Source of the DNA: Psammoneis japonica
Lineage: Eukaryota
Assembly (NCBI GenBank): GCA_008632985.1
Contig: QPGO01000034.1
Span: 449,311 to 513,310, forward strand
DNA length: 64,000 bases
Direction of reading: 5' to 3'
The notes beneath the pieces were generated by a model. That model had not been told where the DNA came from. It ran no database searches and saw only the letters and a list, made by a program, of their open reading frames with translations. A program made the position numbers and the translations under genes. Position 1 is the stretch's first letter. Each line of letters begins with the position of its first letter. Below, one piece after another: positions 41,928 through 64,000 of the stretch.

Positions 41928-43001
41928 TCACAAGTCAGCGTCCCAGAGTTTACCGAGCTCTGGTGCATTTGGTGCCAACTCGGAAGCTGCTACCTCCTCG
42001 ATACTACACGTACTTGACCCATCGTCAGAATACGAGGGAACAAGTACAAGACAGTCCCCGTAGCCATGCTCAGATAGAAATGCACGCGCAGGTGCAAAGG
42101 GGGCGTGAATAACAGCAAACTGATCGGCCTGGACGAGAAGGACCGGCCGTACTCCGTTCGCTCTTTTTCTATCAAAGGAAGGAGCGAGGAGAGAGACACA
42201 ATCAAGAGAGCAACCATACTCGAGAGCCTTCCTCTGATGTTCTGTCGATATTTCTCCGTTGCTGAAGAGAACTGCCGCTCCGTATTGTATGGGGTGAAGG
42301 CTAAGTCGATCGTCACGCTTCGCTGCTTCAACTGCTTTGTCGAGTAGCCGGCGCGCTTGATCAGACAAGGAAGCCGCAAGGCTACTTTGTTTTTCGGCCT
42401 TTGCCTCTCCCCCTAAACGTGCAGCTTCTTTGGCATCTAGCCGTACATACGGAGACGGATATGGATACAATTGCCTCAGGGTCGTTCTGATGCTACACCA
42501 CTCATGGGACATGTGATCGTTTCCGGAGCAAGGCATTAACAGATTTCTCATCGCGGACGATTCCTTTCGACTAGACGAAACGTCTAGGTTGCACTTTTGA
42601 CAAACACTTCCGGCCAACACAATAGGAACGTCCCAAGGTACTTTACTGTTGCTGGCAAAATACTCTCTGCAGAGCATCCCCGGTGAAATTGGAGTGACAA
42701 AGTCAGTTGTAATTATGACTCGTGTGACTCTGCGCAGGTTTGGAAGAAACCTCAGTTGAATAAGCGCGGCTCGTTCTGCACATATAGACCCACCTATGTA
42801 GCATGGCTCGTCGTTTGTGCCAACTACGTGGTGTCGCGTTGGAGGTGTCTGCGAGTTCGACTGGTCATCCTCATCCAATTCGTAAAATACTATTGCGAGC
42901 ACTCGAAATGACGACTGCAGTGGTGAGGACGAAAGAGAAAGACGATGCTTGTGAGCCAGCTGAATGTCATTCACGTCGCTGTCATCGGCGGGGGTCGCCA
43001 T
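41928..43001 (-). CDS. Cytidine deaminase-like protein with two tandem deaminase domains
   Basis: S.FRV.A, GTN.E, SICAERAA and SPGMLCRE in domain 1; degenerate second domain (YGAAV, YGCSLDC, PFAPAR). Confidence 0.8.
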   Translation of the reverse strand: MATPADDSDVNDIQLAHKHRLSLSSSPLQSSFRVLAIVFYELDEDDQSNSQTPPTRHHVVGTNDEPCYIGGSICAERAALIQLRFLPNLRRVTRVIITTDFVTPISPGMLCREYFASNSKVPWDVPIVLAGSVCQKCNLDVSSSRKESSAMRNLLMPCSGNDHMSHEWCSIRTTLRQLYPYPSPYVRLDAKEAARLGGEAKAEKQSSLAASLSDQARRLLDKAVEAAKRDDRLSLHPIQYGAAVLFSNGEISTEHQRKALEYGCSLDCVSLLAPSFDRKRANGVRPVLLVQADQFAVIHAPFAPARAFLSEHGYGDCLVLVPSYSDDGSSTCSIEEVAASELAPNAPELGKLWDADL

Positions 43002-43404: not shown

Positions 43405-44932
43405 AAATTTTTGCTATTTAGACATTTAGTTTACGAGATGCTCAACGCGTTGTTTGTCGCATGCACCGGCACGGGAGGTGCATGTGTCATGGCATGGCGC
43501 TCGCATGGGGGTCTTTTGCCATCTTGCCATGTGGTGAAAGCCACGTAGATTCTACAGAGGCCTCAAGGTGACACAATTAGACTCAAAGCAACCAGGAGAA
43601 TCAAAGGCGACCCCCCTGGAGAGCACTTTTTGAAGGGTGGTCTCAGGTGCTCCAAACCAAATTTTTGCTGTTCAGCCATTTGGTTTGTGAGATGCTCAGC
43701 GCATTGTTTGTCACATGCACCGGCACGGGAGGTGCATGTGTCATGGCATGGCGCTCGCATGGGGGTCTTTTGCCATCTTGCCATGTGGTGAAAGCCACGT
43801 AGATTCTACAGAGGCCTCTCAAGGTGACACAACTGGACTCAAAGCAACCAGGAGAATCAAAGGCGACCCCTCTGGAGAGCACTTTTTGAAGGGTGGTCTC
43901 AGGTGCTCCAAACCAAATTTTTGCTGTTCAGCCATTTGGTTTGTGAGATGCTCAGCACATTGTTTGTCACATGCACCGGCACGGGAGGTGCATGTGTCAT
44001 GGCATGGCGCTTGCATGGGGGTCTTTTGCCATCTTGCCATGTGGTGAAAGCCAAGCAGATTCTACAGAGGCCTCAAGGTGACACAACTGGACTCAAAGCA
44101 ACCAGGAGAATCAAAGGCGACCCCTCTGGAGAGCACTTTTTGAAGGGTGGTCTCAGGCCTCCAAACCAAATTTTTGCTGTTTAGACATTTAGTTTGCGAG
44201 ATGCTCAGCGCGTTGTTTGTCGCATGCACCGGCACGGGAGGTGCATGTGTCATGGCATGGCGCTCGCATGGGGGTCTTTTGCCATCTTGCCATGTGGCAA
44301 AAGCCACGCAGATTCTACAGAGGCCTCAAGGTGACACAGTTGGACTCAAAGCAACCAGGAGAATCAAAGGCGACCCCTCTGGAGAGCACTTTTTGAAGGG
44401 TGGTCTCAGGTGCTCCAAACCAAATTTTTGCTGTTTAGACATTTAGTTCATGAGATGCTCAACGCGTTTTTGTTGCATGCACTGGCACGGGAGGTGCATG
44501 TGTCATGGCATGGCGCTCGCATGGGGGTCTTTTGCCATCTTGCCATGTGGTGAAAGCCAAGCAGATTCTACAGAGGCCTCAAGGTGACACAACTGGACTC
44601 AAAGCAACCAGGAGAATCAAAGGCAACCCCTCTGGAGAGCACTTTTTGAAGGGTGGTCTCAGGTGCTCCAAACCAATTTTTTGCTGTTCATCCATTTGGT
44701 TTGTGAGATGCTCAGTGCATTGTTTGTTGCGTGCACCGGCACGGGAGGTGCGTGTGTCATGGCATGGCGCTCGCATGGGGGTCTTCTTTGCCATCTTGCC
44801 ATGTGGTGAAAGCCACCATGTAGATTCCACAGAGGCCTCAAGGTGACACAATTGGGCTCAAAGCAACCAGGAGAATCAAAGGCGACCCCTCTGGAGAGCA
44901 CTTTTTGAAGGGTGATCTCAGGTGCTCCAAAC
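43405..44932. repeat. ~254-bp tandem satellite, 6 copies
   Basis: GAGATGCTCA recurs at 43435, 43689, 43945, 44198, 44452 and 44705. Confidence 0.95.
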
Positions 44933-46667
44933 CAGATGTGGCCCCCTTTTTCAAAAACTTGGTGGCAGTGGCTTTGAGGAGAGTTGTGGTGCTGCTGTTG
45001 CCCTGGGTGAAAGTGTGAGAAAAACAACTTTTTGTGCACTCCTCTGGTGTGCTCATGTGGCGTGCTCCTCTCATTGCCCCATGCCCGGCACACGCACTTT
45101 TTGCTGCGCTGCTTCTGGCTGGCAGAATGACACCCTCAGCTCTTGTTGCACCTTGGCTGCTTCATCATTCAGGTTGACAGCAGCGCCACTGCTCAACACA
45201 CTGTGCACAAGTCAGAAAGTTAAAAAGCAACCTCCAAGCTCTGAAAATTGTGATCTGGTGCACCCCCCATGTGGCGTGCTCATTGTTTGTGTGTTTTGCA
45301 CCTCTTGTCATGTTTCTGGCAGAGCAACACTTGCTCTGCTCATTTTGCCTTTTCCAACTGCTTTGTCATGAAAGTGTCAGTGCCACCCCTGGTGCAGACT
45401 TCATCCTGGCATTTGATGTCAACCAATCTGCCCCCAGCCTTGATGGCTTTCCAGATTGTGGTCTTGTGCATTTGTGCAATGTGCGCTCACTGTGTTTCTG
45501 GCAGAAATGTCAGCTCTTTTTGCCCTGACTGCTTTGTCATCAAGGTTGACATTGTCTTGGCAAAACAGCTCCTGTTGTTGACCAATCTGCCCCACTGTGC
45601 TCTGCACTGCATGAGCCAGAGAGCTGCGCAATTTTGCACTGACTGTCTCATCATTGCAAAGGAGGTCAACACACGCATCCTTCCAGTGCTCACAAATGCA
45701 ACCTGGTCATGCTTTCATGTGATGTGCTTGTTGTTCGTGCACTTGTTGCTGCTTGTTTTGTTCAAGGCTTGACAGTGCTGACTCTTGTTTCCTTCACTGC
45801 TTCATCACATTGAGGTGTGTGCCACCCCAGCACAGACTTTCCAGCATGTCATCTGCTCAACACTGTGCAAATCAGAGAGTTGAAAAGCAACTTCTGCTTT
45901 TGACATGGCTCAGTCACACAGACACTGAGTGCCATCTTGACAAGCTTTCACCATTGCAGCAGCATGCTTGATGCAAGCATGTGTGCCACAACCCACCTTG
46001 CTTGTCCTGGGCTTGTTGTTGCCACAACTCACTCAGCACATTTTTGCCATTGACAGTTGTCTTGTTGCAGAGCTTCCTCTCTCAAGCGGCTGCTCTTGAG
46101 ATCCTGTGAAATTTGGCACAAAGTCAAACTGCTTGTGCACACACCTGTGATTTCATTGATGTTGGCTCTTTTTGCAGACTGATCAATTCAGAAGTTTGAC
46201 CCAATGCCCCTCAGGTCTGGATCCAGAGGAGATTGGAAAATGAACTTTGGATGTGGCTGGCCAATTTCAGCGGTCATCTGCAGTTGCTTTCACCCACCAG
46301 TCTGCAGAGCTCTGGCAAATGTGGCCAATGTCAGTGGGGGCAAAAGTGGGTGCTTGGCACTCTGACACAGACTTTCTGCTGCAACAGATTTGTGCATCCT
46401 GGGGCAGCCACATTGCCGTCAACATGCTTGCACAATGAGTGCAACGAGCTGGTGCCACATTGACTGTTGCATCAAATGGAGCAGGCGCAGGTTGTCACCT
46501 CCCAGCATGACCAAGACAAAGTTGCCATGATCAACAACTGCTTGAGTTTTGTCAACCTTGGGTGCCAAGATTCAAGTTTGGCTGCCAAGAGCCATGTCAA
46601 TTGCTTCATCTCAGCTTGAGCTGCTCTCTGTCACTTGCCAACTTGCTTTGTCCTGCTGTGTTGCTTN

Positions 46668-47049
<382 letters not shown>

Positions 47050-49323
47050 CACAAATGATCAATGGCAAAAGCTTCAACCCCATCTGGAGTTGGCACATCT
47101 GCTTTGGGCCCAAAACCTCCACACTCTTTTGCCGTGAATTTCAGCCTTCATTTTTGCAATGCAGGCACCAGACAGTGCACTTCTGTCTCAGAGCCAACAG
47201 CCTGTGACGCAGCAACAAGGCTGGGGGGCAAAGTTTCTGGCAGAAATTTTCTGGTCTCAAATGCCAAATGGCAAGCCTCCTGTGTTCCCTCCATCATTCA
47301 CATCACACAGCAGCACACAACCAACTGGCCAGAGCCACCCTTGCACAGCAGCCTGCCTCAAGACCAAAGGTCTTGAGCCAAGTCTCAAGACATCTCTGTC
47401 ACACCAACATCAGCAACAGAATGTCATGAGAGCAAAGTCAACAAGATGACTTGAGTTCAAAAAATGACAACTTCCTTTTTGATTTTTTGGAACAAGACTT
47501 GCTGTGCAGTCATTGGCCTTTTGAGCTGCTTTCATGAAGAGCAGACCAGCGCTGTTTTGTGGGGCAGCAAACACAGCTGCTTTCCAGCAAGTGTTGATGA
47601 AATGTGCTTGGCCAGAGGTTGAGAAATCAAATCAACAAATTTTTTGGTCACCACAAGTGTTGTTGTCATTGTTGTTGTTGTCGTTGTTGTTGTCCTCATC
47701 AGATGACCGGGTCTCCTGCACGCAACTGACTTCCCAGAAAAGACAATGGATCCATTTGCCTCCTTCGCAGTGCACAGACAAGCCATCTGCATTTGGTGCA
47801 CTGATGGAAGCTCACAATGCACAATGTGTTGATGGGCATCAAGGGAGTGTGTCTTGATTGCAGCAATCGCCTTGTGTTCACAATGCACACAATGGCTGTG
47901 CGGTCAACAGCAACGCCAGCCTTCCTGCACTCAATTGGCTCATCAAGCTTGCCCAAAGCAATCTCAAAAGCAGCCAGTGGGTCAGTCTTGTTGTTCACAG
48001 AAAAAGAACAAGGGGCAGCTGATGAAGTGGTTGCCCCGACGGAGCAGCAGCATGGGCAGGGGCATCAACTTGGCATGAGAAATTGTGGGCCCACGCACGT
48101 CTGCAGCAAAACAAGGTGGCGGTGGCCTTCTTGGGAGCAGTGGAGGCATTGGAGGCTGGAGTGCGGGGCAGGTGGGTTCCAGGTTGATGTTGGTGGTGGC
48201 ACAGGATGGAGCTGTTGCTGCAGGGTGCAACTCAGTGACAGGGCGAGTCACATCGCGCACAGCGACAATCTTGGTGGATGGAGCAGAGACAGCTGGGGAT
48301 CAGCTGCAGTCAGCAAATCACCGTCTTGAGCCAATGCCGGGGACAGAGTGGCCTGTGTTGATGACAATTTTGCTTGCCAGAACAGCGCCATCATCAAACG
48401 GGTGCCATTCATGGGGGGGGGCATGCTCACATTTGTTTCATTGTGCTCAAGCTGTGCGTGAGGCAGTTGACATTGGATCTCTGATGGCACACCTCACGCA
48501 GGATTGCTGCACAAGCAGAGTGCATGCCATGCCACGTGCAACATGTTGGTGGATGAAACCAATGAAAGCAGCAACAAGCCATTCAACAATGGAGATGCCA
48601 ATGGCATCGATGAAGCAGAGGTGTCCATGTTCAAAATGCTCACCACCAGTGTCAACAACAATGTGCTGAGGAGTTTTTGTTGTTTCACTCTGTGGCATGG
48701 CCCCTCCTCACACCAAGCAAAAAAGCAAGGCTCATGACCTGAGAGTGATCCACTGTCCATGTGGGAATGACCCTCTCCACTGACACATCATGCTGGCTGC
48801 AGCTTTGCTCACCTGTTGCTGCATGCTTTCCTTGCCTTCTCACAACAATGACCAAGATGTTTGCTGGCTTGTCAGTGGGGAAGCTCATGGCAGTGGTGCA
48901 GATTGTGCCATTTTTGGCATGCACAGTTTGTGATGCAAGAAAAGAATTGTCTTGCTGCTTTGGAGCTTGATTTTCTTGTGCAGATTTGGAGCTGAGTGTG
49001 CATGACACACAGAAATGTGGGGCTGCTGAAAGAACCCTTGCAAACTCTTGACCAAAGTTTCACAGCTGATGACAACAATTCTGCCTCAGTTTCTTGGCCA
49101 CACCTTCTGCGTGTTTCCCACACCAGCTCTGGTGCAGACAATGCCTTTCTCCAATGGTGCAACGACAGCTCTCACTTGCCTGCTCCAACTGCTTCCATCA
49201 CTGACATGCCTTCATTTTGTTGTCACAAGCAATCTCATGCATTTGGAAGTGACTGGCATTGAGCCCTTCTTTTTGTTTGTTTGCTCATCATTCTTCTTGT
49301 TTTTTTCTTCCTCATGTGCAAAG

Positions 49324-49680
49324 TTTCTGCACAAGTTTTGGCACAAATTCTGTGTGCTCTGCAAGTCATTTCAGATGGTTGACTTGCCAAGCTGTTGACT
49401 GCTTTCCATCCACACCTCTCAGGCATCAATGTGTCCCTGTTCTGCCTGTTGTTGTCAATTTCAGTCTCCTGCTTGTGTGGTGAACAATCTTCCATCATTG
49501 CTGCTTTCAGAAGCTTGACTTTTTGAGACCAGCTCAGCATGCATTGGCCTTTCTTTCATGCGCCGACAATTCTGCACAAGTTTTGGTGCATGTGTGGCAT
49601 GTCTTGAAAGTCATTTCAGATGGTCAACTTGCCAAACTGTTGACTGCTCTCTGTCCACACTTCTCAGGTGTCAATGACTC
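49324..49680. repeat. Degenerate ~110-bp direct repeat pair
   Basis: TTCTGCACAAGTTTTGG...AAGTCATTTCAGATGGT..ACTTGCCAA.CTGTTGACTGCT occurs at ~49324 and ~49570. Confidence 0.8.
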
Positions 49681-51329
49681 CCCTTCTGCCAACCACCAGT
49701 TTGAGCTCTCTGCCTCATCTGGCAAAAAAAAATGGTGCTGTGACTCCATTGCCAGCAAGGCTGGTGCTGGCTGACCCACACTCCCAGCACATTGGAGCAA
49801 TGTGGCAGATGCTAGAATGGATGCCTCATGTGGCAAACAGTCCTCCATCATTGCTGCTGCCAGAAGTGTGAACTTGAGCTGGCCTGGCATGTGTTGGTGT
49901 GGCCAGTTTGTGCCCTGCTCTTTCTCACATCAAAACATTTCCAGACTGTCTGTCTCACCTTTGCAGCCAGATCCAATTTCAAAAAAAGAGCCTGACCACA
50001 GCATCAAGCACTTTGACTTTGATGCTGTCTTATTTTGCTGGTCCTGTTTTTGCTGCTGCCAGCAGTTTCTGGTGGGCACCACAGACTTGTGGCACAAATC
50101 TCAGCCAATTGTCAACATGCTCCAGCCCCGGGTGATGCACAAAACAACACTCCCTTTTGACATGATTTGCATGTGCTTTGCATGTTGAGGCTGTTTTCTG
50201 GAATTGATGCTTGTGCATTCTGGCTTTCATGCTTGACAAGAGTGTGAATGTTTGAACAATTTTTTTCATCAGTGTTCAAGTCTTTGTTGGATGTGCAAAA
50301 TTCATCTGTGGAAACAATGCTGGCTGTGCATCAGCAGTCATGTTGCAGAAAGTTTGTGTGAGCAGACCAATGCTGCAAAATGCATGCATTTTGTGTCAAC
50401 CTCCAAACAGCAATGGTGTGTGAATCTTCAAAAATTTTGGCAAAAATCATCCGTTGTGTTTTACAACCTGCTTGTCACAATGAAGAAACATTGACCGCAC
50501 AAAAGCAATGACATTGCAACGCTGGCACAAGTCTTGTCAGTGTTGCAAAACATTGAAATTTTTGCACAAATCCATGCTTTTGGTGATGAAATCTTGTTTG
50601 CAAGTCAGAGACCACAAAAAAAATGTGCAAATGTTGTTTTTTGCACACTTTGGTTCTTTTCATGCGTGTGGCTGGAACACGTCTGTCACATGTCCCTGCT
50701 TTTGATGTGCTGGGGTGTGGGTCAGCTTGCTCTCTTGCTGGAGTTGAAGGGTGGAAGCACAGCAATGCTTTGAACACAGATTTTGGGTTTTGTTGCAAGC
50801 ACAAAACATGGCAAGGAGATCAAGCCATCAGCTGCCAAAGCAGCCACCTGACAAGGAAGCAGCTCTTTAGCCATGGCCCAGGAGACACAAGGTGCAGATG
50901 TGTGCAGAACAAAGTGGGAGTGCTGTGTGTTGTCTTTTTGGGGCTGCCAAATGTTGGAGCATCTGGATGAGCAGGAAATGTGAGAGACCTGGAAGCACAT
51001 CTGTTGAAAAGAAGATGCTTTGGATCTTGATGTGATGGATTGGATGACACTTTGGAAACAAATGTGCACTCATCACCAATCTCACCAACCTTCTTTTTGC
51101 TGCATTTTGTGGTGTCAGTGGGTGCCCTTTGTGTCACAAGAAAAAAGTTGTTGAGAGCATCCAGGCAAACCACAGCCATCATGGCAACCAGGACAAGTGC
51201 AACAAGCAGCACAAGAAACCTCAGAGGACCCCCATTGGCAGTGACATTGACTTGTTGGTTCAACATTCACTCCAAAGAGTCTGGAGCACTGTGTTCAGTG
51301 CATGCAGTGCTGACCTCCCCATTTGATTG

Positions 51330-54300
51330 TCATCTGTGAGTCAAGAAACCTTCATCATGAGTGGCAGAGGAGGAGGAGGAATGAGCACCAAAGGCCAATG
51401 TCATCACCAAGGCAGAGGTGACAGAGGCCCAAAGTCTTGTCTGAAAACAAGAAAAGAAACCCCAAGAACAAGAGAGCAGTGATGATGCTGCAAGCATTGA
51501 GTGACACCCACAGGTCAAGTCAAGCTGCAAGCTCTGGCAGAAGAAAGGTTCATGGCATGGGCTCCAATTGGATGAACAGGCCAAACAAGGGCCAGAAATG
51601 AGTTTGAGCCAAGCCAATGCCAGCATCAAGTCAGATGAGACAATCCTTGACAATGGCTCCACCCCCAGCATGGCAGCAAGCTGGGGTCCAGTGCACAATG
51701 TGCAACTGGCAAGAATCAAGATTGATCTTTCCACAAGAACACAGGAGTGGACACTTGTTTGAGTGAGGACTGCACTGTTTCAGGACAGGGTGATGTGAAG
51801 CTTGGATTGCAAAATGCAACAGCCAACATCCTGAGTCTGAAAAATGTGAAGAGCAAGCACTGCATTGTGCACAACAACTGAGTGGCAAATGAGTTCTGCC
51901 CATTGGACAAGAAGACTGGCAAACAGGTCACAGTGTTCAAAGTCAATGACATTGGACTGCATGCCTTTGCCCCAAGCCAGCAGTTCTGTGACCATGCAAA
52001 TGAACTCCAAGAAGATGAGTGGCACATGAGCATGCCATTGAAGGGCAAGAAAGAGGTCACAAAAAGACCAACAAGAAGCACAGGAGTGCATCAGGAACTG
52101 TTGTCCCAGCTGCAAAACAAAATGTGAAAGGCTGCTCTAAACAAGAGGTGGCAAATGCCAAGGAAGTGCAAAGGCTGTGCTGTGAAGCTGGAGTGCCCAG
52201 TGTGAGAGACTTCAAGCCACTCCTGTGATCCAACCAGGTGAAGAACCCATCCATCCCACCCAAAAATGTGGACAGAATGGTGGCCACATGGGGTCCACCA
52301 ATGGGTGCACTGAAAGACAAGACCAAGCATGATTGCCGCTCCTGTCAGAGGAACAAGGTCATCATTGTTCCACCTGAGATCTGTGACAAGCAGAGAGAAG
52401 GCATGACCCTCTGCATTGATGCCATGGAAGCATGTGGTGTTGAGATGATGCGCGCGATTGACAAGATGTTCAAGTGCTGATTGAGTGTAAAGCTGAAGTC
52501 CAAGAAGCATGAAGACATGCACAAAGCCTTGGATGTGATTCTCCAAAGCTGTCAAAGCAATGGTCACACAACAAGACATCAAGGAATTCAAGTTTGCAGA
52601 GGCAAATTCAGAGACAATCTGTGCACTGTTGGCTGGACTGCAGGAGTGGACAATGATGAAAACAACAGCAACAGCAACAACAAAGACAAAATCACAGAAA
52701 GCAAAATGACACAAACCGCACAACCAGCACCCAAGCCAGAAGACAAAGACCATGAAGATGAGCCTGACTCAGATGACAAGTGTGAAAAAGCAAATGAGAT
52801 GCTGGCTGCCAAAAGGTCTCTGGTCCTGGCCAACAGCATGAAGCTCAAGAAGGGCACAAGGTTGAAGAAGACTCAGAAGACAGTGATCATGACCACAAGA
52901 GTGAAGAACCCAAACAAGACAAAGAACCCCAGGAAGGCTGAAGATGGGGAGGCAAATGAATGGAGGAAGATGCAGATGCCGTGCCAGGGAGCAGAGTCAC
53001 ATGAAGTGGAGCATTCTTCAGCATGACATCACAAAGACATGGAGAAAACAAAGTTTGTTTCACAGGAGTGGAAGACACCAGAAAGACAGCAAAGAAGCAA
53101 TGCAAGCTCAAGTGCTGCCATCATTTGCATGCTGACGTGAGTCCTGGCCCAAAGGATGACATCAAACATGAGTCAGAGACAGCAATGGCACTCACACACT
53201 TCATGTGTGAGATTGACAACTGACTCTGAAGTGGAGAGGGTGCAAGTTTTGCCCAACAATGTTTGCTCCATGAAGGCCTCAAAGCATTTGGCCAGAGAAG
53301 GGGCATGATGCCTTGCAGAAAGAAATCAAACAGCTGCACAGCTGAGTGTGCTTTGCAACAACATCAGTCAAGGATGCAACTCCAACTGAAAGGACCAAGG
53401 CCATGGCAGCCTTGATGTTCCTTGCACCAAGAAATGAGATGGTTGCACAACAGGGTGAATGCAATGGCAAACTGACCTGAGAGTGGCCAGACAAGGACAA
53501 GTCAGCCAGCTCTGCTGCATCTCCAGAGGGGACATTGATGAAGGCAACTGTTGACACCCATGAAAGACACAACAAAGTGAGCACCAATGTTCCAAATGCA
53601 TTTCTGCAGACCATGACACTGGAGCCTGGAGAAGGCAAAGACTGGATTGTGACACAAAGATTGCAGGAGTGCCAGTGGACATGCCAGCGAGCATTGATCC
53701 CAACCTGTGCAGACCTTGCATGGTCCCAGAGAAAGGCAAGAGAGTCCTTTGCATCCAACAAGTCATCAGAGCCACATTCATGGTGTGCCAATCATGGCTC
53801 TGTTGTGGCACAACAAAGTCCAATGAGTTCAGCCCACATGGTCCATGCATTGCCAATTGTGCAGTCAATGGCAAGCAGCGCACAATTCAATTTCATGTGG
53901 ATGACTTGTTGTCAAGCCACAAGAACCCAAAAACCCAAAAGCAGACAACAACTTCCTGAGCTGGCCAAACAAAAGAAGTCTGGCAGCCATGGTGAGGTTG
54001 TTGCCATGCAAGAGAAGAGACATTGCCATCTTGGCATGACCCTGGACTTCAGCCAGAAAGGGAAAGTGAAAGTTGACATGGCAGGCTGTGTTTGCAAGAC
54101 AATTGATCAGTTTCTAGAAAAGACAAAGAGCATGGATTCTGCATTGACACCAGCCAGAGAAAAGACATTTGACACCAGTGGAACAAGATGATCAGATGAG
54201 AAGGCTCAGACCTTCCATGTGTGGATGGCCAAGGGACCACTCCTGTCCAAGAGAGGCCAAATGGACACACACCTTGCTGTCACCATGTCATGCATGCAAG

Positions 54301-54562
54301 TGAGAGCTCCCACCAACAAGGGTTGGGAAAGCCAGTCCATTGTCTCAAGCATCCAAGCCAGACAAAAAATGAAGCCACTGCATCAAGCATGAAGGGCCTC
54401 TGAGTTGTCAAGTGGAGGGTGGATGCATCATTTGAAGCACACCCCAATTTCAACAGCCACACCAAAGGAGCAGTCAGAGCAGTGCAGGCTCATCTCAAAG
54501 TGCCTGAATCTCACTGCCTGAAGCAGCACAGAAGCTGAGCTTGTTGGAGTTGATGATGCCAT
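51330..54562 (+). mobile_element. Heavily decayed Ty1/copia retrotransposon (pol remnant)
   Basis: Protease ILDNGST; RT motifs VPNAFLQT, PCIAN..VNGKQ.TI.FHVDDL.SSH and HLGMTLDFS..GKVKVDM; RNase H KW.VDASF..HP and TEAELVGVDDAM. Many stops and frameshifts; left boundary approximate. Confidence 0.85.
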
Positions 54563-57500
54563 GTGTTTCTCTTTGACAACAAATGTGTTGGGGGCAAACA
54601 ACATTGCATTGTCAAACGTGCGACAACCTGCCATGTTGGCTTGGGCATTGTTTTCTTTGCCTTGCTCCAACAGCCAGCCCACATCCAATGACAAACCCTG
54701 GAATGCTTTTGTGCATGCTGCAGTGCTGTCTTTTGTTTTGACCAAGTGCCAATCTGCATGACTGCAAAATGTGAAAAAAACCAAATTCCCAGAGATCTTC
54801 TGATGGCTTTGCTGCAATTTGTGCTGTGTTTTTTGTTTCCTGCTGGCAACAAGGCCACTTCAAAGATGCCTCCCTGCTCAACAACTGTGCTCTTGCCCCA
54901 ACTCTGCACCAGTGTGTGCAGCACTGGTTCAAACAGAAATGCTTTGTTAAATTTCTCTGCAACCTTGGCACAAAAGAGCATTGTTTCATGCAGCTGCAGG
55001 TCAGCACCGCTGTCTTGTTGAGTCAGAGCCTCTGGAGGTGTGTTGTGAACAGTTGACTCATTGTTGTTTGTTGTCAAGGCAAGCACGCATTTGCCCCGAA
55101 GACTCAACATTTAGCTGGCACACAAAGTGACAACAAACCATGCATCAACTCATTGTTGCCTTGACTGCTTTCTTGCTTGCCAGAGCGCTGCTTCTTCCTC
55201 ATGATGTCTGCTCTTGGTTTTTCCAAGAAGATTGCAGCACCCTTCATCAACAAGCAACATCTGCTGCAGCAGCTCTCAAACATGGCATGAAACTGTTGCT
55301 GCTCCCTTGACTTCTCTTTTGTGGAAATGGCTGTGCCACATCTGCACAACTTTGCACTGCCCTTGAAGCCATCAGTGTTAGCATGCCCCAAAGCCTGCCA
55401 TGATGCCAGCTCCATGTCTGACACCCAGCCTCTTTGCAAGTCTGCCAAACTTGCCAAACTCACAAAACCTGCCACCAAACACACCAAACTTGCCAAACAA
55501 ACCAAACTTGCCAAACTTGCCAAACCCACCAAAAACTTGCCAAACTCAACAAACTTGTCAAATTTGCCAAACTCACCAAACCCACCAAACTCGCCAAACT
55601 TGCCAAACCCACCAAACTTGCCACACTTGCCAAACTCGCCAAACCCACCAAACTTGCCAAACTTGCCAAGCCAGCCAAACTTGTTAAAATTGCCAAACTC
55701 ACCAAACTTGTCAAACTCGCCAAACTCACCAAACCCGCCAAACTTGCCAAACCCACGAAACTTGCCCAACTTGCCAAACTCACCAAACCCACCAAAACTG
55801 CCAAACACACCAAACTTGCCAAACTTGCCAAGCCAGCCAAACTCGTTAAACTTGCCAAACTTGCCAAACTCACCAAACTTGCCAAACCTGCCAAACCTGC
55901 CAAACTCACTGAACTTGCCAAACTTGAAAAACTTGCCAAACTTGCCAAACTCGCCAAACTCACCAAACCCGCCAAACTCACCAAACTTGCCACACTTGCC
56001 AAACTCGCCAAACTTGCCAAACCCCCCAAACTTGCCAAACTTGCCAAATGCACCAAACTTGCCAAACCTGCCAAATTTGCCAAACTTGGCAAACTCGCAA
56101 AACTTGCCAAACTTGCCAAACCCGCCAAACTTGCCAAACTCAGCAAACTTGCCAAACTCACCAAGCTTGCCACACCCACCAAACTTGCCAAACTTGGCAA
56201 ATGTGCCAAACTTGCCAACCCCACTAAACTTGCCAAACATGCCAAACTCGTTAAACTTGCCAAACTCAACAAATTTGCCAAACTCAACAAACTTGACAAA
56301 CCTGCCAAACTCACCAAGCTTGCCAAACTCACCAAACTTGCCAAAGCCGCAAAATGTGCTAAACTTGCCAAACTTGCCAAACTTGTCAAACTTGCCAAAC
56401 TCGCCACACTCACCAAACTTGTCAAACTTGTCAAACACACCAAACTTGCCAAACCAGCCAAACCAACCAAACCAACCAAACTTGCCAAGCTTGCCAAGCT
56501 CACCAAACTTGCTGAACTTGCCAAACTCACCAAACTTGCCAAACTCACCAAACTTGTCAAACTTGTCAAACTTGCCAAACTCACCAAACCCGCCAAACTT
56601 GCCAAACTTGCCACACTTGCCAAACTCGCCAAACCCGCCAAAACTGCCAAACACACCAAACTTGCCAAACTTGCCAAGCCAGCCAAACTTGTTAAACTTG
56701 CCAAACTTGCCAAACTCGCCAAACTTGCCAAACCTGCCAAACTCACTAAACTTGCCAAACTTGCCAAACTTGAAAAACTTGCCAAACTTGCCAAACTCAC
56801 CAAACCCGCCAAACTTGCCACACTTGCCAAACTTGCCAAACCCACCAAAACTGCCAAACTTGCCAAGCCAGCCAAACTCGTTAAACTTGCCAAACTCACC
56901 AAACTTGCCAAACCCCCCAAACTTGCCAAACTTGCCAAACTCACCAAACTTGCCAAACCCGCCAAACTTGCCAAACTTGTCAAACTTGCCAAACTTGTCA
57001 AACTTGCCAAACTCCCCAAAACTTGCCACACCCGCCAAACTTGGCAAATGTGCCAAACTTGCCAACCCCACTAAACTTGCCAAACTTGTTAAACTTGCCA
57101 AACTCAACAAATTGACAAACTCGACAAACTCTCGAAACTCAACAAATTTGACAAACCCGCCAAACTTGCCAAACTCACCAAACTTGCCAAACCCGCCAAA
57201 CTGGCCAAAGCCACAAAATGTGCTAAACTTGCCAAGCTTGCCAAACTTGTCAAACTTGCCAAACTCGCCAAACCCACCAAACTTGGCAAACTTGCCAAAC
57301 TTGCCAAACTGGCCAAACTTGCCAAACCCACCAAACTTGCCAAACTCAGCAAACTTGCCAAACTTGCCAAGTGTGCCAAACTTGCCAAACTCGCCAAACC
57401 CACCAAACTTGTCAAACTTGCCAAACACACCAAATTTGCCAAACTCGACAAACTTGCCAAACTCAACAAACTTGACAAACCTGCCAAACTTGCCAAACCC

Positions 57501-59450
57501 ACCAAACTTGTCAAACTCACCAAACTTGCCAAAGCCGCAAAATGTGCTGAACTTGCCAAGCTTGCCAAACTTGTCAAACTTGCGAAACTTGCCAAACCCA
57601 CCAAACTTGGCAAACTTGCCAAACTCACCAAACTTGCCAAACCCACCAAACTTGCCAAACTCAGCAAACTTGCCAAACTTGCCAAGTGCGCCAAACTTGC
57701 CAAACTCGCCAAACCCACCAAACTTGTCAAACTTGCCAAACACACCAAATTTGCCAAACCTGCAATGCCAGCACAGCCAAAGGAACAAAGTGCAACACAC
57801 AAGACAGCGCCTCTTTTTGGAGTGGGTGACCACTCTTTTTTTGAAGATCTGACTGATCCTGCCACATGCTGATGTTTTCTGCGTGGATTTCTTGCACTTG
57901 CAGGAATCACCAAAAACCAAAAAAAGCCCAAAAAAGTGTTTTCACATGGGGGGCATTGCTGTCTCATTCACAATTCATGCCAAACTTTGCACATTGCTGA
58001 AAAAGCTCATTGTTGCACATGACATGAACACATGTGCAACATGAAGATTTGACTGTGTGTTGCCCCAAATGCAACTCAATGTTTTGCATGTGGCCCCAAA
58101 CAAAATTCAATGCTTTGCTGTCATGTGCTTTTGTGGCAGAAAAGGCAACACACAAACTGTCTGTGCTGTGTGCTGTTTGTGCACACCTTCTTGACAACAT
58201 CCCATTCCTCCATTGGCCATTGTTCCCATGTTGCTGCAGTTTCTCTGTGCACAAGTTTGTGCTCTGCAAAACTCCCTCATGTGTTTTCTCTTTGACAACA
58301 AATGTGTTGGGGGCAAACAACATTGCGTTGTCAAACGTGTGACAACCTGCCATGTTGGCTTGGGCATTGTTTTTTCTTTGCCTTGCTCTGCCAGCCAGCC
58401 CACATCCAATGACAAACCCTGGGTTTCTTCTGTGTGCACTGCAGTGCTGTCTTTTATTTTGACCAAGTGCCAGTCTGCATGACTGAAAATGTGCCCAGTG
58501 CCTCTTGCAACAACTTGCTTGCCACAGCATCCATTTGTGCAGACCAAATTCCCAGAGATCTTCTGCTGGCTTTGCTGCAAATTGTGCCATGTTTTTTGCT
58601 TCCTGCTGGCAACAAGGCCACTTCAAAGATGCCTCCCTGCTCAACAACTGTGTTCTCACCCCAGCTCTGCACCAGCATGTGCAGCACTGGTTCAAACAGA
58701 AATGCCTTGTTAAATTTCTCTGCAACCTTGGCACAAATGAGCATTGCTTCATGCAGCTGCAGGTCAGCACCGCTGTCTTGTTGAGTGAGAGCCTCTGGAG
58801 GTGTGTTGAAAACAGTCGACTCCCTGTTGTTTTTTGTTGAGGCAAGCATGCAATTGCCCCAAAGACTTGACAATCAGCTGGCACACAAAGTGGCAACAAA
58901 CCACGCATCAACTCATTGTTGCCTTGACTGCTTTCTTGCTTGCCAGAGTGCTGCTTTTTCCTCAGGATGTCTGCTCTTGGTTTTTCCAAGAAGATTGCAG
59001 TGCCCTTCATCAACAAGCAACATCTGCTGCAGCAGCTCTCAAGCATGCCATGAAGCTCTTGCTGCTCCCTTGACTTCTCTTTTGTGGAAATGGCTGCACC
59101 ACATTGCGCAACTTTGTGCTCCCCTTGAAGCTGTCAGTGTGAGCGTGCCCCAAAGCCTGCCATGATGCCTGCTCCATGTCTGATGCCTGGCCTCTTTGCA
59201 AGTCTGCCAAACTTGCCAAACTCACAAAACCTGCCAAACTTGCCAAACTCAGCACATTCGCCAAACTTGCCAAACACATCAAACTCGCCAAACTTGCCAA
59301 ACCCACCAAAAACTTGCCAAACTCAACAAACTTGTCAAACTTGTCAAACTCGCCAAACTCGCCAAACTTGCCAAACTCAACAAACCTGCCAGACTTGCCA
59401 AACCCACCAAATTGGTCTTGCCAAACTTGCCAAACTCAACAAACTTGCCA
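54562..59450. repeat. ~1-kb block present twice (54562-~55620 and 58281-~59450), each copy running into the 9-bp minisatellite
   Basis: Alignable by eye from TCTCTTTGACAACAAATGTGTTGGGGGCAAACAACATTGC through TCTGCCAAACTTGCCAAACTCACAAAACCTGCC. Confidence 0.9.
55440..57765. repeat. 9-bp minisatellite, consensus CCAAACTTG, ~2.3 kb; shorter array at 59203-59450
   Basis: Continuous CCAAACTTG/CCAAACTCA/CCAAACCCA variants, which produce the (LPN)n and (GKF)n pseudo-ORFs. Confidence 0.95.
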
Positions 59451-62400
59451 AGTGTTCTTCAACATTGACAGTGCTGTTGACGTCATCCAAGCTCATGCTG
59501 CGCAGACTTGCGGCAACTCCCTCACCAGGGAACAATGGTGTTGCATTCTGCCAGACCATCAGCGCATTTGGGACACCTTGCCTCAGTCCACCAAGGCCAT
59601 CATTCTTGGCCTGGGCACCTCCCACACTAGCAACTGCCATGACTTGATGGCAGTCAACCTGCACGACCTCCGTCTTGGCAGTGACGGTGATGTCAACTTG
59701 TCCACCAATGCCCATGATGTTGCGTCAACCCTCACACCATCTGACACTGCAGATGACACGGCCAATGCGGCCAACCCCATCCTGGCCCATCTCACATGGT
59801 GCAAGCCTTTGCCACCCGGCGACTTGCAATGTCTCCTGGCACTTGAACGGCACCCTTCTGCCCGCTCTGACAAGAAACCCCCCGGATCTACACCTTCCAT
59901 CCACTCCAACAAGAAATCCAATGGATCTGTGTCCTTCCATGCCGCCGACACTGACACTGAGCTCAACGGTCATAAATGCTGTTGTGTCAACAACCACAAT
60001 GTCATCTGCTCTGCCTCAACTCACAAATCAGTTTACAAAGGCGCTCCAGTGGATCGCGGTGCATGCGGTGGTGTTGCCGGTGATGATGGCAATGTCATTG
60101 CCCGCACTGGTTGCCAGGTTGATGTCCAAGGTGTCGATGATCACCAACTGGTTGGCATTCCCATTGTCACTGCTGGTGGTGTCATCCACACGCAACGCAG
60201 CCCTGTCATTGCCATCCTTCACCAGTGCACCTGCACTGGAAAGGGGAAGACCATGCACTCTTGCAGCCAGCTTGAGTGGCACAAACACAACATCAATGAT
60301 TGGTCCATCAAGGTTCCCAATGGTCTGCAGTGCATCACCACCATTGACGGATGCATCATTCCCATCAACATCAAGGCCGGCCTTCCGTGCATCACCACAT
60401 GCCCGCACACCGATGCCGAATGGGACACCCTGCTGCATGTTGTTCTCACTGGCAACAACACCTGGGATCCATCTGTCCTTGACCACCAGTTCATTGACGA
60501 TGAAAAGTGGTGTGATGCCATGTCTGACCTCCAAGACGACCCGACTGCCAACCTCTTTGACAAGTTTGGCAACTGTTGCCACCGCCATGTTGTCAACAAT
60601 GCCATGCTTGCAGACTCCATCCTTGATGACCACCTGCGCACAATGTTTGATTTCTTCTGTGAATGCCATGAGCGCAAGATCAATCCAAAGGATCCCAACT
60701 TTGAGTCTCTGCACTCTCATTTTGGCTTTCTCCTGAAGGACACTGTTTGCCGCACTTTTGATTGCACGATGCAATGCACCCGCATGCCAGCCAGCACACA
60801 CTTGAAAAAGGTGTGCAAGTCGGCCAGTCTGGCTCTAAATGTTCGCCGATGCAACGAACCTGTTGCCACTGACACGGTGCACTCTGACACCCCAGCCATT
60901 GACTCCAGCTGCACCAGCGCCCAGCTCTTTGTTGGCACCGAATCCCTTGTCACCGGCGTGCATGGAACCAAGACCAACAAGGAATTTGTCAACATGCTTG
61001 AGGACAGCATTTGTCATCGTGGTGCCCCGTCCAAGCTCATCAGCAACCGTGCTCAAGTTGAGATCAGCAACAAGGTTCTTGGCATCCTCCGTGCCCTCTT
61101 CATCTCTGGTTGGCAAAGCGAGCCTCATCAACAGCATCAGAATTTTGCTGAACATTGCTGCCAAACTGTGAAGACCATGGCCAACACCATCATGGATTGC
61201 TTTGGGTCTCTGGCTTGCACCTGGCTGCTCGCCCTGATGTGTGTGTGCTTCATGCTCAACCACACGGCATGTGCCAAGCTCCACCGGCACACCCCCACTG
61301 AAGTGCTGTCGGGCTCCACTCCTGACATCAGCCCACTCCTCCATTTTCAATGGTGGGAACCAGTGCACTGTCACCTGGATGATTCCAACACCACCTGAAT
61401 CCCGTGAATTATGTTGCGGTTGCTTTGTTGGCATTGCTGAACACGTGGGCCACCAAATGATGTTCAAGATTCTTTCTGACGACACTCAGAAGATTCTCTG
61501 CCATTCCAATGTGCATTCCGCCCATGATCCATCTGCTCCAAACCTGCGTCTTGATCCTCCTGATGAGAAACATGCTGACCCGTCATTAAATCCTGCCACG
61601 ACTCTGAGGATTTGCCAGATTCACCAGATGGGGAGGCAATCAGGATGCCCAAAATGCTGGTCTTTGACCCCGAGGACATCATTGGATGCACCTTCCTCAT
61701 GAAGCCACAAGAGGATGGACAACGCCACAGAGCCCGCATTGTCAAAGCCGTTGAGGACCATGACTGGAAAATCAGAGACAATCCTGAACTGGTCAAGTTC
61801 ATTTGCTCAATGGCGCAGGAATGGTGACCACTGCAAATGCATGGCAGTGCATGTGGGTGACCCAGCCTTCACCATGAAGGACCCCCAGGCTTTTGCAGAC
61901 ACCCTCATGGAGAAACACAAGTTCAAGCTCAAGGGCACTGGACCACTGGAGTTCCATCTTGGTTGTGATTTCACCCATGATCCAGATGGCACCCTGTGCC
62001 TTGCTCCCCGCAAATGCATTGAGCGCATGGTTGACAACTGCACGTGGCTCTTTGGGGAGAAGCCCTGCACTGATGTGCTTTCACCCCTTGACAAGGGAGA
62101 CCACCCTGAGCTTGACACTTCCTAATTACTCAAACTGGATGGCATCCACCCACTCCAATCCTTGATTGGTTCCCTGCAATGGGCCGCATCCCTTGGTCAC
62201 ATTGACATCACTGCAGCTGTCATGTCTCTGTCTAGCTTGCATGCAGTGCCCCGCCAGGGCCGCCCAGACCGTGCCAAACGTGTCTGCAGATTCCTCTCCA
62301 AGATGTGTCATGGTGCCCTTTGATTGCTCACCAAGGAGCCCAAATGTTCAGACCTTCCCAAGCCCGTGTGTGACTGGGCCCAGTCTGTGCATGGGGAGGT

Positions 62401-63311
62401 AGAAGAGCTGCTCCCGCAAGATGCACCTGAGCCACTTGGCAAGTTCGTCACCACAACACACTGCGTCAATGCAAACTTGTTCCATTGCATGCTCACTGGA
62501 TGCTCTGTCACCGGCATCCTCCATTTCCTCAACAAGTTTCTGGCTGATTGGTTCTCTAAGAAACAAGCAACAGTCAAGACTGCCATGTGTGGATCCGACA
62601 AGTTTGTTGCCGCAAGGACGTGCATTGAGCAGATCATTGACCTGCGCATCACTTTACGTTGCCTTGGCATCCCCATTTGCAAAACATGTTGCATGTTTGG
62701 GGACAACAAGTTGGTTGTGGACAGTGCTGCCATCCTGCACTCCAAGCCACACAAGCAACACACTGCCCTCTCATTCCATCATGTGTGTGAGGCAACTGCC
62801 TCCAGTTTCCTTGAGTTTCATTTCATCAAAAGTTCCCACAACCCAGCTGACATCCTCAGCAAGCATTGGGGTCACTCCCAAGTCTGGAGCCTCCATCCTC
62901 TAATGTTTTGGAACTTCGATCCCAAGGCTTTCAACCAATCTGACCTCAAATCTGTTGCTGTTGACCCCTCAAGCAAACTGGGGAGTGTCAGGATTTGAAC
63001 AAGATTTCAGTTCATCACACACAATTACATGCATGCTCTTAGTTCCGCGCGGGTCACGTGATGCAGTTTGCTTTCAAGCCACTCAGCTCACAAGAACAAT
63101 GACAGCAGTGCCGACATCACAACACCAGTCTTTTGGCTCCTGCAACAGTCTCTGCATGGAGACTCATCTGCCATTTGGACAGCAGCAAGGAGTTGTTGTT
63201 TTCTTCCACCCAGTCATCTTCAATTTCTGTCACATGACAGTCGTGAGACCTGTTTGTTCTTTGTGATGTCAGAAAAGAGCTCTGATGCATGTTGCTGAAA
63301 GATCCCTGACA
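59450..63311 (+). mobile_element. Ty1/copia LTR retrotransposon (diatom CoDi-like), 5'-truncated, internally deleted and mutated
   Basis: Gag end IWDTL..KAIILG; protease VDRGA.GGVAG; integrase NEPVATDT, RGAPSKLIS and SEPHQQHQN; RT tail; RNase H SKKQATV, MFGDN and NPADILSKHW. Domain order PR-IN-RT-RH; PPT GGGGAG at 62980-62985. Confidence 0.92.
62986..63311 (+). repeat. 3' LTR of the copia element
   Basis: Starts TGTCAGG directly after the PPT and ends CCTGACA (inverted termini TG...CA); 326 bp. Confidence 0.75.
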
Positions 63312-64000
63312 ACTCAACATTCAGCACAAACATGAAGTGAGAGAGCCTCAAGACCCACACACATCAATTGTGCTGAAAGAACAACAAATTTGGAAGAGCA
63401 TGTTGTCAATGCAACCCATCCCAGTGCTGCATGGCTTGAGCCCATCAAAAACAGAAGTTGCTGAATGATTGCTGGCTGTGTTTCCTTGAGTTAAAGGCCT
63501 GGTGCAATTGCCAATGACCAAGACACCAAGCAAAATGAGCCTGCACCCAGTGCATCTCCAAGCAGCAGTGCAAAGTTTTGCATTTAGGACAGACAAACTC
63601 ATGTGGTGGTTGGCAAGCAACAAGACATCACTGTGCGTTGACCCACACTTGAGATGGGATGCTGCTGATTTGCATCAATTGATGGTGTCAACATGGACAA
63701 AAGACACAATGTGGTTGGAGACATGCTGTGTGTGGAGATTGAGAAACTTCAGCCAGTGTGGGTGGGATTGTGGAAGCAAAGACACTGCACCACCATGAAA
63801 AAGTTTTGTGACAAGAAAGAATTTTGTGACAAGACAGCAAGGCACTGGACATGCAGTTGGTGCCAAGGTGTGTGTCCACTGCCACACCAATGTTCCCCAC
63901 ACACATGATGACAAGAGTGTCATGGACAAAGCTGAGCTGTGCAGAATGAATGTGCACAAGACCAGCAAGTGCTGGCGTGTTTTTGGTTTGTGAATGCCAA

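Follow-up and report, generated by a model that had tools for sequence, protein, structure and literature searches.

Introduction

The closest described counterpart of the locus analysed in this study is found in the alga Bigelowiella natans, in which the integrated DNA of giant viruses and virophages is subject to TpA-specific hypermutation (Mettrop et al., bioRxiv 10.64898/2026.01.13.699255). According to the main text of this preprint, 230 of the 231 de novo mutations identified in two integrated viral regions were A-to-G or T-to-C changes, all at TpA, and the rate was about 6e-7 per site per generation (bioRxiv 10.64898/2026.01.13.699255). The same text describes clusters elsewhere in the genome that are poor in TpA, rich in CpA and TpG and enriched for reverse-transcriptase and DDE Pfam families; its authors interpret the process as a defence against foreign DNA and propose an ADAT2-like DNA adenine deaminase as the enzyme (bioRxiv 10.64898/2026.01.13.699255). 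Here, we analyse a stretch of 64,000 nucleotides from the diatom Psammoneis japonica (NCBI GenBank assembly GCA_008632985.1, contig QPGO01000034.1, positions 449,311 to 513,310 of the forward strand), referred to as the window, in which a block of repeats that includes the remnant of a copia retrotransposon is almost devoid of TpA. This pattern is likely to reflect a regional, in-place, TpA-specific hypermutation at the level of DNA, whatever the enzyme involved.

Other systems are relevant for comparison. In animals, APOBEC enzymes convert C to U on cDNA and ADAR enzymes convert A to I on double-stranded RNA, acting prior to integration on single-stranded cDNA or RNA and in a strand-coordinated manner. 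Fungal repeat-induced point mutation (RIP) has been described as a C-to-T change that occurs mostly at CpA and creates TpA (PMC2621366). Diatoms have DNMT4 enzymes that are related to the fungal RID protein and whose function is given as unknown, and diatom transposons, as reported for Phaeodactylum, carry 5-methylcytosine (5mC) introduced through DNMT5a (PMC9998398).

Results

Tyrosine codons of the copia remnant have turned into cysteine and histidine codons

The right-hand end of the window had been predicted, from the sequence alone, to carry a copia polyprotein whose tyrosines were lost through Tyr-to-Cys and Tyr-to-His changes. The reading frames on which this original prediction was based indeed have the composition reported for them: the open reading frame (ORF) 59176-61398 is part of a stop-to-stop ORF (59143-61398, 751 aa) with a single Tyr, and the ORF 62324-62998 (224 aa) contains none. 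In phmmer searches against 1.8 billion representatives, the query 59998-61398 had 4,926 matches, the best of them with 51-54% identity, and the query 62324-62998 had 458; many were polyproteins of 1,850-1,930 aa with an RVT_2 domain. Among the matches listed, all but 2 of 120 relatives contain this domain (PF07727), with Pfam E values of 1e-23 to 1e-27 in the related polyproteins. By homology to these RVT_2-bearing polyproteins, the remnant is assigned to the Ty1/copia type.

The fate of the tyrosines was assessed at the protein level against 53 intact full-length relatives, which contain 3.1-4.5% Tyr and 0.5-1.2% Cys. At the 33 columns with a Tyr majority, the window has Cys in 19 cases, His in 9, Phe in 3, Ala and Leu in 1 each, and Tyr in none; the 21 columns with at least 80% Tyr yield 13 Cys, 6 His, 1 Leu and 1 Phe. 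The motifs named in the original prediction all lie within Tyr columns, including YVDD (Y at 61850, now CAT), HYVDA (62462), TYGSE (62588), LRYLG (62660), SYMFGDN (62690), TDTVYSD (60880) and HWGY (62873). In YVDD, Y is replaced by His and the first D by Gly, in agreement with the anticipated loss of catalytic motifs. Intact relatives themselves carry Cys or His at the 80% Tyr columns in at most 1-2 of 53 cases. As a control, non-Tyr residues are kept at 345 of 429 positions (among 450 columns conserved at ≥80%), with Arg as the only other badly affected residue (15 of 33 kept; Cys in 7 cases, His in 6), a pattern that bears out the parallel CpG decay suggested earlier.

At the DNA level, the remnant was compared with 73 intact metagenome loci in a codon-projected alignment. 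None of the 31 strict consensus TA sites, all of which are Tyr codons, is kept; the outcomes are TG at 19, CA at 8, TT at 3 and CT at 1, the TT cases being Tyr/Phe positions that vary in the relatives as well. Consensus CG sites are kept at 14 of 34 positions (TG 9, CA 7), while the remaining 14 dinucleotides are kept at 61-93%, with AA (45/53, 85%), TT, GG and CA at 85-93%. The same picture emerges from the overall frequencies, which per kb amount to TA 44.7, CG 41.9, TG 79.7 and CA 81.9 in the intact relatives and to TA 4.0, CG 26.1, TG 107.1 and CA 117.3 in the window copy. When the threshold is lowered to sites at which at least 35% of the intact loci have TA, the window shows TA at 0 of 65, including 23 codon-spanning sites (CA 15, TG 1, TA 0) whose ancestral state is uncertain. 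The 76 loci of the family include no close DNA relative of the window copy or of L034, L009 and L017, the best matches reaching 68-77%, and the fates of synonymous and codon-spanning TA were therefore scored by consensus only. The 14 TA that are left in the copia lie mostly where relatives lack TA and thus look newly arisen rather than spared. Residue columns and DNA consensus agree on TA as the ancestral state, and TAY codons have produced both of the predicted strand outcomes, TGY and CAY (Cys 19, His 9; TG 19, CA 8).

The purge covers a block of mixed repeats and arose in place

The loss of TA extends far beyond the copia (Table 1). At about 43,440, the number of TA per 500 bp drops from about 15-40 to 0-3 and then stays low up to the end of the window. 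The resulting block contains 56 TA (rho 0.04), 256 CG (0.21), 2227 TG (2.10) and 2609 CA (1.71), whereas the host DNA at 1-43400 has rho values of 0.57, 1.00, 1.13 and 1.14, respectively. About 761 TA would be expected in the block at the host rho. The longest stretch without TA measures 4,592 bp in the block (45,221-49,813) and 364 bp in the host DNA. The total of pyrimidine-purine (YR) steps per kb is unchanged (250 in the block vs 237 in the host). Non-ORF host DNA (10,380 bp) has rho values of 0.72 for TA and 1.04 for CG and is therefore normal, so that there is no genome-wide drive against either dinucleotide. The original prediction thus described the Tyr loss in the copia correctly and was too narrow in its scope, since at least 20.5 kb of mixed repeats and, 37 kb away, an inverted-repeat element are affected as well. 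Because the purge covers mixed repeats beyond the copia, the loss of Tyr is a by-product of a regional TA purge.

Comparisons between paralogous sequences show that the mutations occurred in situ at the DNA level, hit both strands and postdate local duplication. Copy A of a duplicated segment is 85.7% identical to 58278-59452 (blastn), and copies A and B differ at 78 of 872 aligned positions, including 14 sites at which one copy has TG and the other CA, as expected if one ancestral TA or CG changed on opposite strands. At least 10 such double sites distinguish the 181-bp internal repeats of the inverted-repeat element. The six copies of the 253-bp tandem repeat at the block edge, which are polymorphic for TA, TG and CA, have 31 variable columns, 28 of which are transitions and 22 of which lie in TA, CG, TG or CA contexts; copy 1, at the very edge, keeps 7 TA, and copies 2-6 keep 1-3. 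The 9-bp satellite adds a within-array picture of CpG decay, as the sole YR site of its unit is TG in 142, CA in 53 and CG in 29 of 257 units.

The inverted-repeat element, which lies between genes in the left part of the window, contains 19 TA (rho 0.18) and 100 CG (rho 0.72), and its flanks have a TA rho of 0.60-0.69. The only TA remaining are those in the outermost ~20 nt of the two arms. Directly outside the element, there are TA-rich microsatellites. The purge is thus limited to repeat or foreign DNA that lies beside normal genes and spacers, with the copia, satellites, a tandem repeat and the inverted-repeat element as targets, together with one stretch that looks single-copy.

TpA loss and CpG loss are separable

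Purged relatives of the copia also exist in other sources. Four public database 'proteins' of this family contain 0-0.7% Tyr. P0002 shows Cys or His at 13 of 17 Tyr columns, and it retains 25 of 28 Arg as well as 266 of 308 other conserved residues; in P0154, 10 of 16 Tyr columns are changed and 16 of 21 Arg are kept. The two remaining cases combine Tyr-to-Cys/His changes (15 of 18 in P0198, which is encoded on an 84.6-kb contig, and 5 of 6 in P0059) with Arg-to-His/Cys changes (11 of 23 and 9 of 10, respectively). These entries are hypermutated copia relics deposited by gene callers; their ORFs stay open because TAA and TAG stops vanish together with TA. TpA loss and CpG loss are separable processes, since the inverted-repeat element, P0002 and P0154 have lost TA and yet keep CG or Arg. 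The CpG decay in the block (CG rho 0.21 vs 1.00 in the host; 14 of 34 consensus CG sites kept) shows the pattern of, and would fit, the deamination of 5mC.

The relatives are bimodal rather than graded in their TA state. Of the 76 metagenome loci of the family, 73 have a TA rho of 0.50-1.02, and the others stand at 0.02 (L034, with 3 TA in 2,766 bp), 0.06 (L009) and 0.33 (L017); all of the 10 windows of 1 kb with a rho below 0.2, out of 1,187, fall into L034 and L009. These two loci belong to other assemblies, so that the signature is not restricted to the assembly underlying the window. L017, a locus of 2,561 bp with normal CG, keeps 7 of its 15 consensus TA sites and has CA at 5 and TG at none, and it may have been caught part-way through the purge. 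However, its overall CA/TG ratio (1.40) is within the span observed for intact loci (0.74-1.49) and gives no firm indication of one-strand events.

The flanking bases influence the loss of TpA

The TA left in the block (n=55) comprise 35 YTAR, 14 YTAY, 6 RTAR and 0 RTAY sites, compared with 299, 410, 454 and 509, respectively, in the host DNA (n=1,672; chi-square 76.8, p 2e-17). None of them has a 3' T on both strands, nor a 3' T on one strand combined with C or G on the opposite one, and in the 16-context table TTAA and CTAA/TTAG are the best surviving contexts. The Tyr codons serve as an independent check: those after a purine, which offer TA followed by a pyrimidine on both strands, have become His in 8 cases and Cys in 9, compared with 1 and 10 after a pyrimidine (Fisher p 0.049). 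Thus, the A of TpA is preferentially changed when T or C follows, and YTAR is refractory. This is a preference and not a rule, because TA is eventually lost in all contexts.

Sequencing reads contain unpurged copies of the family

Among the public runs listed, a single DNA run (X1) and no RNA run contained the sequence. X1 covers 48% of the words sampled from the copia stretch, and runs X2 and X3 contain next to nothing. Contigs obtained from reads were compared with the window over 59460-64000. A 2,714-nt contig from X1 equals 63205-64000 with 0 differences, at a depth of 67.8 and with no competing variant, the total depth there being 68-122. Across the copia, the summed depth ranges from thousands to hundreds of thousands, indicating that the family is very abundant in that genome. 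Transitions account for 403 of the 451 places that differ among copies. Among the 40 best-supported of the 451 differences, other copies have TA where the window has TG or CA at 59941, 61108 and 63177, with TA supported by 28,289 of 28,628 (61108) and 475,366 of 484,231 (63177) in depth; they have CG where the window has TG or CA at 59980, 61461, 61716, 61740, 62468, 62501 and 63121, and TG where the window has CA at 3 sites. The TA and CG states of the other copies in X1 support the inferred direction of change and weigh against a strand-specific base-calling artefact.

Structure of the copia remnant

In tblastn comparisons, the upstream part of the remnant corresponds to a region of the relative P0005 with E values of 1e-119 to 1e-149, and the part at 61814-62911 matches RVT_2-carrying polyproteins at about 1e-118. 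The mapping onto P0005 reveals the domain order of Ty1/copia elements, with an integrase-side region upstream of reverse transcriptase (RT) and RNase H in one polyprotein. The RVT_2 domain of P0005 spans residues 1367-1577, so that the mapped downstream part (residues 1506-1871) begins after its start, and about 315 RT residues are deleted ahead of 61814. The copy is also truncated 5' at the satellite, contains a +1/-1 frameshift pair at about 61390-61600 and has stops at 61396, 62123 (TAA), 62321 (TGA) and 62996 (TGA). The copia ORFs gave no Pfam match at E 0.01; relaxing the limit to E 10 added only hints below threshold, among them a weak RVT_2 signal (PF07727, E 0.16) in ORF 61703-62125. 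In the relatives P0001-P0003, P0008, P0015 and P0018, Pfam did not call rve or protease at E 0.001, the full-length ones having RVT_2 only; therefore, this marine lineage has an integrase-side region that diverges strongly from the Pfam models. Related RVT_2 polyproteins are abundant in marine metagenomes. The full-length polyprotein P0180 of the same family (1,886 aa) is labelled by its source as an RT protein of a Bacteroidota metagenome-assembled genome, and its contig is probably a mis-binned diatom contig. The very high-copy stretch just past the polyprotein is possibly a 3' long terminal repeat (LTR); no 5' counterpart of it was found in the window, and self-blastn detected no repeat pair around the copia.

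Other features of the window

Table 1. Coordinates of purged sequences and repeats in the window (TRF, Tandem Repeats Finder).
Feature	Position	Strand	Basis and remarks
Inverted-repeat element, 1,941 bp, with 126-nt terminal inverted repeats and three 181-bp internal repeats	6102..8042		Arms 93% complementary; between genes
253-bp tandem repeat, 6 copies	43405..44934		TRF; at block edge; TA-loss gradient
TA- and CG-purged repeat block	43440..64000		20,560 bp; dinucleotide counts; runs past window end
(AC)n microsatellite, ~192 units	46668..47053		TRF
Duplicated segment, copy A	54560..55442		blastn; upstream of 9-bp satellite
9-bp satellite (TRF unit TGCCAAACT), ~257 units	55443..57763		TRF
Duplicated segment, copy B	58278..59204		blastn; then 9-bp satellite
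9-bp satellite, short array	59205..59451		TRF; adjoins truncated 5' end of copia
Copia polyprotein remnant (gag C-terminal part, protease and integrase region)	59458..61812	+	tblastn, P0005 residues 379-1190; frame 1
Copia remnant (RT C-terminal half and RNase H region)	61814..62998	+	tblastn, P0005 residues 1506-1871 on 61814-62911
Very high-copy stretch, possibly 3' LTR	62956..63259		Summed contig depth 74,000-152,000; just past polyprotein
Apparently single-copy DNA, still purged	63412..64000		2 TA in 589 bp; depth 68-122

The left 43.4 kb of the window are gene-dense, intron-poor eukaryotic DNA. The best named matches of its lysyl-tRNA synthetase ORF, with 74-79% identity, come from the diatoms Mayamaea, Ditylum, Chaetoceros, Fistulifera and Seminavis. 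Two paralogous genes for YbaB/EbfC-domain proteins with hydrophobic N-termini are located 4 kb apart, at 36116-36613 (+) and 40588-41130 (-). Inside the block, 21 further ORFs, including those of the interval at 45-55 kb, had no Pfam match at E 0.05, and the window outside the block had no blastn similarity to it. The sole N of the window, at 46667, stands directly 5' of the (AC)n array and is probably an assembly gap at the microsatellite.

At 41931-43001 on the minus strand, about 400 bp from the block edge, there is a gene for a 357-aa protein that has 195 relatives and is conserved across diatoms. Some of these relatives are named cytidine deaminase by their sources. Matches of the protein to cytidine deaminases stay below threshold at the sequence level (PDB 1r5t, E 0.067; Pfam dCMP_cyt_deam_1, E 0.046, and LmjF365940-deam, E 0.076), and its AlphaFold model (pLDDT 80, pTM 0.79) matches cytidine-deaminase folds, with a Foldseek E value of 5e-8 for yeast CDD1. 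Throughout the family, CAE is invariant, and in place of the usual PCxxC there is an equally invariant PG-x-LC, which has only one Cys. The position of the gene next to the block may be due to chance, and nothing ties the protein to hypermutation.

Discussion

Our results point to a locally targeted process that would turn TpA into TpG or CpA, that is, an A:T to G:C transition on either strand, and that would have run to saturation over at least 20.5 kb of repeats in a diatom genome. A second, separable process, the decay of CpG to TpG or CpA as it would result from 5mC deamination, has acted in the same block, and the tyrosines of the copia would have been lost as a side effect of the local hypermutation. 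By analogy with B. natans, we infer that the underlying activity is of host origin and resembles a genome defence. The edges of the purge at the ends of the inverted-repeat element and in the first copy of the tandem repeat suggest that targeting may proceed through the recognition of repeats or of heterochromatin (silenced chromatin).

The mutated base could be the A or the T of TpA, as strand-symmetric data fit both. Since nearly all outcomes are transitions and AA sites are spared, enzymatic deamination of adenine to inosine appears to be the most likely chemistry, although even this version of the proposed process falls just short of an even call. The TA context equals the U33-A34 context of tRNA adenosine deaminases, and the enzyme could be a recruited ADAT/TadA-like deaminase or another deaminase-fold protein. 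With somewhat less confidence still, we put forward the tentative idea that diatoms, and perhaps algae of the stramenopile-alveolate-rhizarian (SAR) group generally, may have a RIP-like defence of opposite chemistry, in which a nuclear DNA adenine deaminase that prefers 5'-T-A-(T/C) would be guided to silenced repeats and integrated foreign DNA and erase every TpA independently of cytosine methylation.

A different enzyme could also drive the same targeted process on DNA, through error-prone repair synthesis, perhaps recruited when deaminated 5mC is repaired, or through a modification of the thymine in TpA that mispairs with G. This version is covered by the likelihood that we assign to regional DNA-level hypermutation as a whole, and taken by itself we consider it rather improbable. 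DNA polymerase eta has an A-to-G signature of the WA type (W, A or T), and a 5-hydroxymethyluracil-like modification of thymine is known from dinoflagellate DNA; the strand symmetry of the signature leaves A or T as the mutated base, and the heavy CpG decay in the block could feed mismatch repair. However, the inverted-repeat element, P0002 and P0154 have lost TpA but not CpG, 85% of AA (45/53) was kept even though a WA signature should affect AA, and nearly all changes are transitions (27 of 31, with the 3 TT located at Tyr/Phe positions that are variable in relatives). Far less probable is an artefact of sequencing or base calling, in which modified bases at TpA and CpG in silenced repeats would be misread, yielding TG from one strand and CA from the other, one of which the consensus would adopt. 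It would also produce TG and CA at former TA and CG sites as well as TG-vs-CA differences between paralogues, and the sequencing platforms used for the window and X1 are not documented. Against it stand the X1 contig that matches 63205-64000 with 0 differences and without a second, strand-specific variant, the coexistence of unmodified-looking copies of the family in X1, the recurrence of the signature in L034 and L009, which come from other assemblies, and in P0002, P0059, P0154 and P0198, and the calling of the B. natans mutations from Illumina reads (bioRxiv 10.64898/2026.01.13.699255).

Two further explanations are, in our assessment, highly improbable. Transcripts of the retrotransposon might have undergone ADAR-like A-to-I editing, which reverse transcription would then have fixed ahead of integration; the copia is indeed a retroelement, and the preprint cites an ADAR preference for A-to-G changes with a 5' U (bioRxiv 10.64898/2026.01.13.699255). 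Yet both strands are affected about equally (TG 19 and CA 8 in Tyr codons; TG 2227 and CA 2609 in the block). In addition, ADAR prefers a 3' G, unlike the 3' T or C preferred here. Editing of retrotransposon RNA prior to integration is ruled out by TG-vs-CA differences that postdate local duplication and by the purge of non-retroelement DNA (tandem repeat, satellites, inverted-repeat element and apparently single-copy DNA). The other possibility, with an equally poor standing, is slow neutral decay under a genome-wide bias, or else selection or a foreign origin with an intrinsically TA- and CG-poor composition. TA is indeed under-represented genome-wide (host rho 0.57), but non-ORF host DNA has a TA rho of 0.72 and a CG rho of 1.04, the relatives are bimodal and not graded, TA was lost at 31 of 31 sites while other dinucleotides were kept at 61-93%, and P0002 lost its Tyr with 266 of 308 other conserved residues intact. 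A coding sequence that lacks Tyr, is frameshifted and has lost half of its RT is not under selection, and the paralogue comparisons reveal mutation in place, their TG-vs-CA differences ruling out an intrinsically TA-poor foreign composition.

Several observations weigh against regional TpA-specific hypermutation of DNA or against parts of it. The process is deduced entirely from end states. X1 is weak as an independent check for artefacts, as its platform is not on record and it may represent the source data of the window. Most other family copies in X1 keep TA at the visible sites, so that membership in a repeat family is no trigger by itself, and the purge of 63,412-64,000, which seems to be single-copy, fits poorly with a trigger that is strictly limited to repeats. 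The flanking preference derives in part from residual TA, which lie mostly at places where relatives have no TA and may be newly arisen. Finally, the choice of strand along the copia is unclustered (14 runs vs about 13 expected, counted by hand) and gives no sign of processive action on one strand; saturation would, however, have removed any such sign.

If regional TpA-specific hypermutation holds true, it would represent a second mutational genome defence in eukaryotes beside fungal RIP, for which there has so far been one preprint on one alga, now found in a different major lineage and in an ecologically dominant group, the diatoms. The window would constrain the mechanism, in that the purge goes to completion, is independent of CpG, has edges that are sharp to about 20 bp at the inverted repeat and shows a 3'-neighbour preference. 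With every TpA erased, Tyr codons would disappear altogether and only one of the three stop codons would be left. Purged elements go unrecognised by Pfam and repeat libraries, and once TAA and TAG are lost, spurious long ORFs remain in every frame and are reported as proteins by gene callers. A simple scan for rho(TA) would find purged blocks and date the silencing of transposons in algal genomes.

Comparison with known systems

The copia of the window resembles the Ty1/copia elements of diatoms, as described for the CoDi groups (PMC8147415), in its homology to RVT_2 polyproteins of about 1,850-1,930 aa and in the position of the integrase side upstream of RT. It differs from them by its truncated 5' end, the loss of about 315 aa of RT, its frameshifts and stops and its scores below the Pfam thresholds. 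The decay of CpG in methylated transposons shares with the window the change of CG to TG or CA and, in the copia, of Arg to Cys or His. However, it explains the CG part only and cannot yield the loss of TA, which also occurs without the loss of CG.

APOBEC and ADAR activities resemble the process proposed here in that they hypermutate mobile or foreign nucleic acid with a dinucleotide preference, whereas in the window both strands of resident DNA are affected in place, non-retroelement repeats included. Fungal RIP shares with the window the saturating transition hypermutation of repeats, the sharp edges and the killing of transposons. It is, however, opposite in direction, as the window destroys TpA and creates CpA and TpG (TA rho 0.04, TG 2.10, CA 1.71). 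RIP was therefore rejected as a candidate: its hallmarks, a loss of CpA and TpG and a gain of TpA, are reversed in the window.

Searches of the open-access literature in PMC and bioRxiv yielded nothing on TpA-specific hypermutation or on repeats purged of TpA in diatoms, and the B. natans preprint was the sole precedent found. As far as the main text of the preprint goes, B. natans and the window share transitions from TpA to TpG or CpA, their confinement to regions beside normal DNA and foreign or mobile targets. B. natans is a chlorarachniophyte (Rhizaria) and the host of the window a diatom; the giant-virus region of the former, according to that text, is partly depleted, with a TpA rho of 0.45, whereas the diatom block is saturated at 0.04. 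Copia, satellites, tandem repeats and an inverted-repeat element as targets, with CpG decay superimposed, are particular to the diatom window. The words 'context', 'flanking', 'trinucleotide', 'CpG' and 'diatom' are absent from the main text of the preprint, in which a preference for a 3' T or C over G or A is not described, unless it is given in Table S2. Judged by this comparison, the window would extend the kind of hypermutation known from B. natans by its occurrence in a diatom, its saturation, its independence from CpG decay and its preference for the 3' neighbour, four points on which the main text of the preprint does not touch.

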